A DNA stretch of 5,974 nt from a virus (taxonomy: Duplodnaviria > Heunggongvirae > Uroviricota > Caudoviricetes): IMG/VR virus record IMGVR_UViG_2711768068_000006, one strand, 5' to 3'. The translations under genes were made by a program, and so were the position numbers. Below are positions 1,730-3,302 of the stretch, one piece after another. The notes below the pieces were generated by a model, which saw only the letters and a program-made list of their open reading frames with translations, searched no databases and was not told the origin of the DNA. Within the stretch, counting starts at the first letter, position 1. The number at the start of each line of letters is the position of its first letter.

Positions 1730-1896
1730 TCGCCATGCTCCGCATCACGTTTCTTTTTCTGACCTGCCGGACGTCGCACCGTGATGTACTCCGCCTTTCC
1801 CAGGCGAACCAGCACCTCCGCACACGGCTGTGCCACATCACGGATATCCCCGGCCCGGGCATCATGCGTGCCCTGCAGATATCGGATCTTTGCCAT
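1675..1896 (-). CDS. Hypothetical small protein (73 aa) between the capsid and portal genes; its 3' end overlaps the annotated portal start by about 55 nt in a different frame
   Basis: Track ORF with an ATG start that fills the otherwise 211-bp gap between the capsid stop (1941) and portal start (1729). The translation is protein-like (MAKIRYLQGTHDARAGDIRDVAQPCAEVLVRLGKAEYITV..., basic tail). An SD-hairpin-ATG arrangement lies upstream. I did not recognise a family. Confidence 0.35.
   Translation of the reverse strand: MAKIRYLQGTHDARAGDIRDVAQPCAEVLVRLGKAEYITVRRPAGQKKKRDAEHGECGTFYGEPEKTRNQDVT
1738..1741 (-). promoter_or_regulatory. Shine-Dalgarno (GGAG) for the portal gene
   Basis: Minus strand reads GCGGAGCATGGCGA-ATG, giving 8-nt spacing to the ATG at 1729. 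Confidence 0.55.
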
Positions 1897-1905
1897 AACC
1901 TGTTA

Positions 1906-1925
1906 CGGGAGGCGCACGCCTCCCG
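1906..1925 (-). promoter_or_regulatory. GC-rich stem-loop (8-bp stem, 4-nt loop) immediately downstream of the capsid stop, between an AGGAGG and the ATG of the 73-aa ORF
   Basis: Plus strand reads cgggaggc gcac gcctcccg: a perfect inverted repeat with 7 G:C pairs and 1 A:T pair. No U-tract follows on either strand, so it is not a classical terminator. The minus-strand AGGAGG lies at plus 1927-1932. Confidence 0.45.
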
Positions 1926-1940
1926 TCCTCCTTATCAGAC

Positions 1941-3302
1941 TCAGCCGCCGGACGCACTGCCGTAGTTCACTCCGGTGATCACCGCCACCGCCGCAGTACG
2001 GCGACGACGCCAGTTGATCCAGCGCTCCGCACGGATGGCCACGCTGCCTGTCTGGAACATGGAAACCAGCTCCACCGGGGACGGCGTGGTACTGTCGCCG
2101 GTCGGCTCAGACTGCATTTCCAGTGATGCCTCGCGGGACATATCCACTGCCACGCCGCCGTCATCCGCCAGATAAATATCCGGGGCATTCACCAGCACCA
2201 GCTGGTCACCCACGTACTGGGAGACAATCACCGGCAGCCCCTGGAAGGAGCCACCCAGCAGGGTCATGTCCGGGTATTCCTTCTGACCCAGCGCATTTTT
2301 ACGCATGGACAGTGCCAGGGCATTGGTGCTGGACATCAGCCAGACCGCACCGGTGGGCTGCAGGTTTGCTGCCACAAACTGTCCAAACGCAGCCTCTGCA
2401 TCCGCATCCGGGTTACCGGTTGATGCCGTGCCCTTCACATCATGGGTGATGGACGCCGGGGAGACATCTGCCACTGCGGCTTTTTTCGGGTCCACAAAGT
2501 CTGTATCCAGACGCGCCACCACCGCTTCCGCCAGCGCATTACGGACCAGTGCATCAGCAGCCGGACTGGAAAAACGGATCAATTCTTCCGTCAGTACCGC
2601 AATGGCCGACACCTTCGCATGACTGAAGGTGATGGATTCAAAATCAAACTTCGTCAGGGGTTTTGCCTTACCCTCACCCACCCAGCCGGCAGCACCGCCG
2701 GACACCTGGGCGTGCACACGGATATTGAATGGCACCTGACGAAGTGCAGGGATCCCGCCCTGACCAAATCGCCCGATAATGGTCTGCGGACGCAGGTAAT
2801 CAATAAAGTCCTGTGCGTATTCCTGATATTCAGACAGGCTGCCTGCCCACTGCGGATCCGTGGTGGTCCCCGCGCCCACTGCCGATTTCAGGACATGATG
2901 CAGACGACTGTCATCCGGATACTGACGACGGGCCACTTCCAGGGCTTCAGATCGGACGCCTTTAGCCGCAGCCAGCGATTTGGCAAAGCGGGCGAAGCCA
3001 ATCCCCTTATCCAGTTTCTGCTCCACACGGATCACCGGCGCAGAAGCCACCGCGGCCACATTCCCGTTACCGGCCTGTTTCACCGGCTGCGCCGTGGCGG
3101 CCTTACCGGCTTCCAGTTCACGCAGGCGCTTCAGGTGCGCATCCACCTGACGGATTTCCGCTGCGGTGTTGTCGTAATGCTCTTCCTCCTCCACATCCAG
3201 CGTGCGCCCTTCCTCTGCGGCTTTGGTCATGACCTCCTCAAGGGAGGCTGCCAGCGCCGCACGCTTGTTTTCAAAACTTTTAATCTGTTCGCCAATATTC
3301 AT
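1941..3302 (-). other. Major capsid protein portion (delta domain plus HK97-fold body) beginning at an in-frame internal ATG (approximate upper boundary)
   Basis: The internal Met at residue 193 (codon near plus 3300-3302) is preceded on the minus strand by AAGGAA with about 9 nt of spacing, read from ...TTTCATAAGGAAAAGACCATAATGAAT. The sequence from this Met onward looks like a complete capsid protein of about 453 aa. Confidence 0.6.

Follow-up and report, generated by a model that had tools for sequence, protein, structure and literature searches.

How a ribosome might reach the start codon of a gene whose only strong Shine–Dalgarno (SD) sequence lies 30 nucleotides (nt) away, on the far side of a stable hairpin, is the question raised by one junction in the head module of a tailed phage. 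The module occupies the minus strand of a 5974-nt stretch of viral DNA (IMG/VR record IMGVR_UViG_2711768068_000006; this whole stretch is referred to below as the window) and is of the type found in lambdoid Shiga toxin (Stx) phages, the BP-4795 type. The junction lies between the major capsid gene and a small open reading frame (ORF) that precedes the portal gene. Comparison of the junction with its relatives suggests that it is probably a split (noncontiguous) ribosome-binding site (RBS), built around an older hairpin that follows the capsid gene.

Structure of the capsid–small ORF junction

Read along the minus strand, the capsid stop codon TGA (1943–1941) is followed by GTCTGATA (8 nt), AGGAGG (1932–1927), A1926, CGGGAGGC (1925–1918), GTGC (1917–1914), GCCTCCCG (1913–1906), TAACAGGTT (1905–1897) and an ATG (1896–1894), with a gap of 44 nt between the TGA and this ATG. 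An in-frame TAA (1905–1903), three codons upstream, closes the reading frame, and ATG 1896 is therefore the earliest possible start of the small ORF. An original prediction, made from the letters of this DNA, had placed the AGGAGG about 30 nt from the ATG, with a 20-nt hairpin of 8 base pairs (bp) between the two. The distance from the end of the AGGAGG to the A of the ATG is exactly 30 nt. The hairpin also lies where it was drawn, but it is slightly larger than was thought, RNAfold adding A1926–U1905 as a closing pair to give a 9-bp stem that spans 22 nt (1926–1905). This fold is stable, with a free energy of −17.8 kcal/mol for the hairpin alone and ensemble probabilities of ~1.0 for its pairs. 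Looping out the hairpin reduces the SD-to-ATG spacing to 8 nt with the A–U closing pair, or to 10 nt without it, in keeping with the figure of roughly 10 nt first proposed.

Neither the SD nor the ATG is part of the stem, and the AGGAGG has an unpaired probability of ~0.75 in the window variant. Its duplex with the anti-SD sequence has an energy of −11.6 to −12.2 kcal/mol, against −3.2 kcal/mol for the best duplex in the 8-nt spacer AACAGGUU; judged by these energies, there is no SD between the hairpin and the ATG. The GGGAGG of the 5′ arm was considered as the real SD and rejected, as its distance from the ATG is 22 nt and its pairing probability ~1.

The hairpin is the only perfect GC-rich stem of at least 8 bp (loop 3–8 nt) in the window, compared with a mean of 0.24 per window after dinucleotide shuffling; arithmetic from this mean puts the chance of such a stem landing in the 44-nt spacer at ~0.002. 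The AGGAGG motif is found six times in the window, with 2.4 occurrences expected. The 71-nt region as a whole has a folding z-score of only −1.96, which is why the argument is built on the local hairpin and the comparative data and makes no appeal to overall foldedness.

Position of the SD in related phages

A scan with the C-terminus of the capsid protein, taking one genome per species, gave 48 loci, 41–85% identical to the window in this part of the protein (49 loci with the window itself), ranging from Enterobacterales to alpha-, beta- and gammaproteobacteria. A second harvest, by alignment of the small-ORF protein against metagenome and viral contigs, yielded 55 distinct upstream sequences from 244 loci. 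Early scans of viral contigs returned near-identical loci only and were of use for micro-variation only. Two layouts were distinguished: class A, in which GGAG(G) is placed next to the stem on its 5′ side, and class B, in which an ordinary SD lies 3′ of the hairpin.

In the window and in all 16 genome loci from Enterobacteriaceae and Erwiniaceae, GGAG(G) adjoins the stem on its 5′ flank, and the interval from stem to ATG contains no SD-like sequence; among class-A relatives, the best anti-SD duplex in this spacer is 0 to −5.2 kcal/mol. The split layout is also found in all of the 55 distinct upstream sequences except those from Serratia and Rouxiella (L015 and L016), which have the same small-ORF family and an SD, a weak one only, after the hairpin. 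In distant relatives the hairpin is often followed by a U-run, and then by an ordinary SD and the next gene. The distance from the end of the GGAG to the start codon in this ordinary layout is 4–9 nt (median 6), as measured in the 18 class-B loci with an unambiguous motif; other class-B starts were re-read by eye and stand outside this spacing table.

Within class A, the SD lies 0–3 nt from the stem, mostly 0. The stem-to-ATG distance is mostly 7 nt, is 8 nt in every E. coli variant and is 6–9 nt in all but four variants, a range that equals the ordinary SD-to-start spacing of relatives with a downstream SD. Anything from 0 nt (TAAGGAG) up to 14 nt, on the other hand, separates the capsid stop from the SD, and the loop and 3′ spacer are free to vary in sequence. 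Because the distances to the stem are held while the stop-to-SD distance varies, the SD is anchored to the hairpin and not to the stop codon, with the ATG anchored to the other side. When the side of the SD was scored by anti-SD duplex energy, 17 of the 49 loci had an SD on the 5′ side only, 26 on the 3′ side only, none on both, and six had a weak SD or neither (Fisher p = 1.6e-8 for mutual exclusivity, in a test that ignores phylogeny). BP-4795 provides an internal control. Its other late genes with a strong SD have it 1–10 nt from the start, and only ORF57, the hypothetical protein that is its copy of the small ORF (between ‘major capsid protein’ and ‘portal protein’), has it 29–30 nt away. 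Together these comparisons indicate that, in the lineage that infects Enterobacteriaceae and Erwiniaceae, an SD once located 3′ of a pre-existing hairpin was relocated to its 5′ side.

Covariation was assessed in an alignment of 34 distinct class-A sequences. The stem cells of this alignment are paired in 92.5% of cases, as against 50–57% when the partner columns are slid. Two stem pairs switch between G–C and A–U with G·U intermediates, and the closing pair is A–U, G·U or G–C by variant within E. coli. The observed covariation score was reached in none of 500 shuffles, a control that ignores phylogeny. In the mRNA sense, ten of the wobble cells are G·U and one is A·C. Wobbles of the G·U and not the A·C kind argue for an RNA structure on this strand, and a palindrome acting at the level of DNA, for example as a protein-binding site, is disfavoured on the same count. 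The unpaired probability of the SD in relatives ranges from 0.0 to 0.94, with a median of 0.63, and there is no systematic sequestering.

One metagenome contig, Ga0058697_10000005 (L186), carries an insertion of ~20 nt within the hairpin (GGGAGGGCGGGGGATCCCTCAGGGGGGAAACCCCGCC), upstream of 401. The insertion may be a partial duplication, and this is the sole sequence that does not fit a simple hairpin model.

The small ORF itself is under coding selection from ATG 1896. In all relatives, the conserved part of the protein begins with this Met. When 24 sequences are compared in pairs, third codon positions account for 51% of the substitutions, and synonymous codon differences amount to 45% in frame compared with 5–6% in the other two frames. 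The ORF matches phrog_829, a family of unknown function, and among its distant counterparts one matches DUF7210 above the Pfam cut-off and another does so weakly. The view of the small ORF as an orphan arose from a word-indexed protein search, which gave E. coli homologues only; it was dropped when the capsid-neighbour route led to a family present throughout Enterobacterales.

A conserved hairpin downstream of the capsid gene

A GC-rich hairpin lies just 3′ of the capsid stop in every one of the 48 relatives. When all 40-nt windows of a locus are ranked by stability, the best fold after the capsid stop falls within the top 2.1% in 49/49 loci, within the top 1% in 43 and in first place in 22. 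As the stems of the 49 loci are unrelated in sequence, it is the structure that is conserved and not the sequence. This distribution indicates that the post-capsid hairpin is an old feature of the head-module family, older than the split arrangement, and that its ancestral role was probably that of a terminator or of an mRNA stabiliser at the capsid 3′ end. A U-run is found 3′ of the hairpin in several relatives, e.g. L001, L013, L016, L038 and L044. The window has the GC-rich stem-loop of an intrinsic terminator and lacks the U-rich tract (tail UAACAGGUU, with 2 U in its first 8 nt), and it is for want of a U-run that the post-capsid hairpin was not called in the terminator scan of the window. 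The original prediction had also allowed for a processing or stability element at the capsid 3′ end. An element at the 3′ end fits the family-wide and older hairpin. An RNase III site was rejected: such sites have a double-stranded stem of about two helical turns (~20 bp), and a 9-bp stem is too short.

In T7-like phages, a strong terminator (T-phi) lies directly after the major capsid gene (PMC10134795). The hairpin of the window resembles this type in being GC-rich, in following the capsid stop directly and in standing at the border between abundant and much rarer products. It differs from T-phi in having no U-run and in going uncalled by the terminator scan, in lying inside a Q-antiterminated lambdoid late operon and, in this lineage, in being embedded in the initiation region of the next gene.

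Other hairpins and layouts were observed in and around the module. At L021 and L022 (Hydrocarboniphaga effusa, ~2269–2380) there is a third layout, in which only 3 nt separate the capsid stop from the start of the next gene, and the coding sequence of that gene contains the conserved, strong hairpin (−25.6 kcal/mol). In the window, a terminator-like hairpin (GAACCGC-TCCG-GCGGTTT, 3900–3917, minus strand) with a long T-run lies between the stop of the large terminase gene and the capsid start, and the capsid gene is thus flanked by hairpins at both ends. The start of the capsid gene has the ordinary layout of hairpin, T-run, AGGAGG (3884–3889), 5 nt and GTG (3876–3878). A like hairpin-then-SD layout precedes the tape-measure gene of BP-4795 (L129, ~12255–12296).

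Alternative explanations

The strongest rival to a split RBS, although an unlikely one, is that the hairpin is only a capsid 3′-end element (a terminator, an attenuator or a barrier to 3′-exonucleases) and that the small ORF is translated without the upstream SD. Initiation would then be SD-independent, on the A/U-rich start, or would fall to post-capsid ribosomes that are held by the SD and re-initiate. The latter is in line with the overlap of stop and SD in some relatives (TAAGGAG), which places terminating ribosomes on the SD. The retention of the hairpin after the capsid stop in 49/49 loci, whatever the side of the SD, likewise suits a 3′-end element, as do the U-run in many relatives, loops that are often of the extra-stable GNRA or UUCG kind, the post-capsid terminators already known (PMC10134795) and the large drop in expression needed at the capsid-to-portal junction. 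Three regularities are nevertheless left unexplained by it: GGAG(G) is fixed to the stem while the distance from the stop varies, the stem-to-ATG distance is held with variable sequence, and upstream and downstream SDs are exclusive of each other. The U-poor tail and the silent terminator scan in the window also count against it. Furthermore, lambdoid late transcription is Q-antiterminated and reads through terminators.

A second explanation, and a distinctly improbable one, takes the SD and the hairpin together as a translational operator or other negative element, in which the hairpin or an extended helix limits expression of the small ORF and the portal, or a phage protein represses it. A purely negative element would not need a strong SD at a fixed position, and freely varying loops speak against a sequence-specific loop-binding protein; we know of no candidate protein that binds the hairpin. 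The portal is, in favour of such control, needed in far fewer copies than the capsid protein. The minimum free energy structure in several relatives extends the stem by pairing CAGGA with UUUUG, which buries the SD, and in the window the region of the AUG (unpaired probability of the AUG ~0.39) forms a weak outer helix with GUCUGAU. However, these extended pairings are weak and rich in G·U, differ among relatives and are lacking in many, in line with the wide range of SD accessibility.

Coincidence, whether as a chance inverted repeat beside a chance AGGAGG or as an AGGAGG that serves a four-codon mini-ORF (GTG-CGC-CTC-CCG-TAA, GTG 1917–1915 to TAA 1905–1903), has scarcely any probability left and is in effect already refuted by the comparative data: a perfect 8-bp GC stem does appear in ~1 in 5 shuffled windows, and the GTG does lie 9 nt after the AGGAGG in the window, but the arrangement is kept in ~50 distinct sequences from several genera, with covariation, and the loop GTG is limited to some E. 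coli variants, the mini-ORF being ruled out by relatives whose loops (GAAA, GCGA, UUCG) have no start codon.

The split RBS is left as the probable explanation, and a number of points weigh against it. Few changes underlie the covariation, since most class-A stems share GCGGGG/CCCCGC. Common descent of the class-A sequences accounts in part for the position of GGAG beside the stem, and the relocation of the SD may be one evolutionary event. The looped-out spacing is longer in four variants, with 11 nt in Pantoea/Erwinia loci and 14 nt in L017, and a count of nucleotides takes no account of the extra distance across the helix base. The unpaired probability of the SD is below 0.2 in about nine of 52 variants, in which the GGAG pairs weakly with the U-rich 3′ flank; this pairing could mean repression in those variants and not activation. 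The A/U-rich, unstructured start region could also allow some SD-independent initiation. Lastly, no reporter, toeprint, structure-probing or ribosome-profiling data on the element were found in the literature.

A role at the capsid 3′ end and a role as a split RBS are complementary, not alternatives. The sequence, its fold, conservation and geometry, the exclusive SD positions and the coding status of the ORF are direct results; use of the upstream SD by ribosomes with the hairpin folded, and the action of the hairpin at the end of the capsid gene, are inferred.

Comparison with known noncontiguous initiation sites

An intervening hairpin reduces the SD-to-AUG distance from 22 to 5 nt in T4 gene 38 and from 27 to 11 nt in T4 gene 25 (PMC3014915). 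Mutations that destabilise the structure lower translation initiation in both (PMC3014915; PMC7297116). The arrangement in gene 25 was confirmed by reporter assays and by dimethyl sulphate (DMS) probing, and is limited to close T-even phages (PMC3014915). Such sites are termed split or noncontiguous (PMC7297116). According to the reviews that cover the T4 cases (Gold 1988; Nivinskas et al. 1999; Malys and Nivinskas 2009), hairpin-bridged sites of this kind are documented for these two T4 genes only (PMC3014915; PMC7297116).

All the sequence-level features of the T4 type are present in the element described here, namely a strong SD too distant to work in linear sequence (beyond ~15 nt), an intervening hairpin, a functional folded spacing, the lack of an alternative SD, and conservation. 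In T4 as here, the junction is intercistronic in a late or morphogenesis operon of a phage, and the distance between a good SD and the start is too great (22 and 27 nt in T4, against 30 nt here). A stable hairpin of ~16–22 nt fits entirely within this interval, and folding shortens the spacing to 5–11 nt in T4 and to 8–10 nt here. The likeness extends, for gene 25, to the confinement of the split form to one sub-lineage, with an ordinary site in more distant relatives. The original prediction had named the T4 genes as precedents, and comparison supports it through the anchoring of GGAG(G) to the stem, the short and constant stem-to-ATG distance, the exclusivity of the two SD positions, covariation and the coding character of the ORF.

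There are also differences. The phage, the gene and the hairpin sequence are unrelated to those of T4, and the SD directly adjoins the stem here (0–1 nt). The hairpin here is older than the split layout, as a family-wide post-capsid element, with the SD having moved across an existing structure. The T4 sites are backed by mutagenesis, reporter and DMS data, whereas the present element is known from sequence comparison.

A further comparison is with thrS and rpmE of E. coli, which have noncontiguous translation-initiation regions (Sacerdot et al. 1998, cited in PMC7297116). These too indicate that the ribosome tolerates a stable stem-loop in its binding region and that a hairpin can arrange the elements of initiation. 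In thrS and rpmE, however, the SD and AUG lie together on one side of the hairpin, with an upstream enhancer or single-stranded region on the other, and the hairpin is the operator through which the gene product regulates its own expression; here the hairpin parts the SD from the AUG, with no known regulator. No earlier description of the element in Stx or lambdoid phages was found in the literature, most subscription journals being outside the search.

Gene order, the portal junction and distribution

The features of the junction and the genes of the head module are listed in Table 1. No match was found in the whole window to any covariance model of Rfam 15 at E ≤ 1, and a promoter scan found no sigma-70-like sites in the window. 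The 701 nt around the element have copies of 90–100% identity in 1244 of the 5426 complete E. coli genomes, in up to seven places per genome. The same 701 nt match 94 phage records, most of them Stx1- or Stx2-converting lambdoid phages, e.g. BP-4795, YYZ-2008 and 2851.

Table 1. Positions of the junction features and head-module genes in the window.
Feature	Position	Strand	Basis
Capsid stop codon TGA	1941..1943	-	ORF list
Shine–Dalgarno AGGAGG, against 5′ base of hairpin	1927..1932	-	Sequence; anti-SD duplex; conservation in class-A relatives
Hairpin 5′ arm ACGGGAGGC	1918..1926	-	RNAfold; covariation at closing pair and one inner pair
Tetraloop GUGC	1914..1917	-	Relatives have GUGU, GAGC, CGCGAG, UGAGAG, GAAA, GCGA, UUCG and others
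Hairpin 3′ arm GCCUCCCGU	1905..1913	-	RNAfold; pair probability ~1.0
Single-stranded spacer AACAGGUU, 8 nt, stem to start codon	1897..1904	-	Length kept, sequence not; no usable SD, no U-run
ATG start of small ORF	1894..1896	-	First residue of the conserved protein in all relatives
Small terminase	5944-5552	-	ORF list and profile matches
Large terminase	5555-3942	-	ORF list and profile matches
Prohead protease–major capsid fusion, 645 aa	3878-1941	-	ORF list; Pfam Peptidase_S78 and Phage_capsid; BP-4795 annotation “major capsid protein”
73-aa ORF, phrog_829	1896-1675	-	ORF list; “hypothetical protein” in phage records
Portal gene	1729-365	-	ORF list and profile match; start overlaps end of small ORF

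Downstream of the small ORF, its stop overlaps the portal start in most other Enterobacterales (TGATG or TAATG), and translation of the portal is therefore probably coupled to that of the small ORF. In the E. coli lineage this stop has been lost (GGC TGA TG to GGC GAA TG), which gives 18 extra codons, a product of 73 amino acids (aa) and a 55-nt overlap with the portal gene (1675–1729). Stop–start coupling of the kind seen at the small ORF–portal junction of relatives (TGATG) is not found between the capsid gene and the small ORF, which are 44 nt apart.

In some phage records (FM180578/NC_049943, phage 2851; ON470597), the small ORF is unannotated and the portal is listed right after the capsid. 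Such an omission would be expected if gene callers penalise an apparently SD-less start. In BP-4795, ORF58 and ORF59 (L129 6572–9318; window 1–365) are annotated as two consecutive ‘portal protein’ genes, which encode 454 and 461 aa and overlap at ATGA. The portal profile phrog_2271 has 859 positions, of which the window portal covers 1–451 only. It may be that the ‘portal’ gene is split or in two parts here, or else that the second gene codes for something different. Within the 645-aa fusion, an in-frame ATG (3300–3302, minus strand; codon 193) lies at the boundary between the protease and the coiled-coil/capsid part, preceded by AAGGAA and 9 nt, and may be a nested start that yields capsid protein without the protease domain.

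Proposed mechanism and implications

In the late mRNA, the 22-nt GC hairpin is predicted to be folded essentially always. The 30S subunit would pair with the AGGAGG at the 5′ base of the hairpin, and, as has been proposed for T4, the hairpin would protrude from the mRNA track of the subunit, leaving an SD-to-start distance of ~8–10 nt instead of 30. The 8-nt spacer that leads off the 3′ base would then set ATG 1896 in the P site for initiation of the small ORF, whose translation would help ribosomes to reach the overlapping portal start. Meanwhile the hairpin would still serve the 3′ end of the capsid mRNA as it did before the split arose: in relatives where a U-run follows it would be a terminator, and elsewhere an exonuclease barrier or attenuator. 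In distant relatives it would end or stabilise capsid transcripts, with the result that capsid outnumbers the downstream proteins; in the split lineage, hairpin and RBS together would step expression down from capsid to portal. It may be speculated that the SD–anti-SD helix stacks coaxially on the stem, which would explain the gap of 0–1 nt between them.

A broader proposal, tentative and rather doubtful as a whole, is that one 40-nt element does two jobs, defining or protecting the 3′ end of the capsid mRNA and serving as a looped-out RBS spacer on read-through transcripts, perhaps with the SD–anti-SD helix stacked on the stem. The capsid-to-portal ratio would then be set at one point, and the family would be a natural series of SD ‘hopping’ across a conserved structure, which runs from the ordinary sites of Serratia, Rouxiella and hosts further removed to the split ones of Enterobacteriaceae and Erwiniaceae.

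As for the generality of the hairpin-bridged design, the split RBS would be a new case in an unrelated and very common phage family, one that includes Stx1- and Stx2-converting phages. Its natural variants in stem, loop and spacing, and the relatives with an ordinary layout, form a ready comparative series with which the model is directly testable. Gene finders and predictors of RBS strength that use linear SD-to-start spacing would score ATG 1896 as having no SD. T=7 heads contain ~400 capsid subunits and 12 portal subunits, and the result suggests how a phage may lower expression from capsid to portal where the capsid gene comes first.

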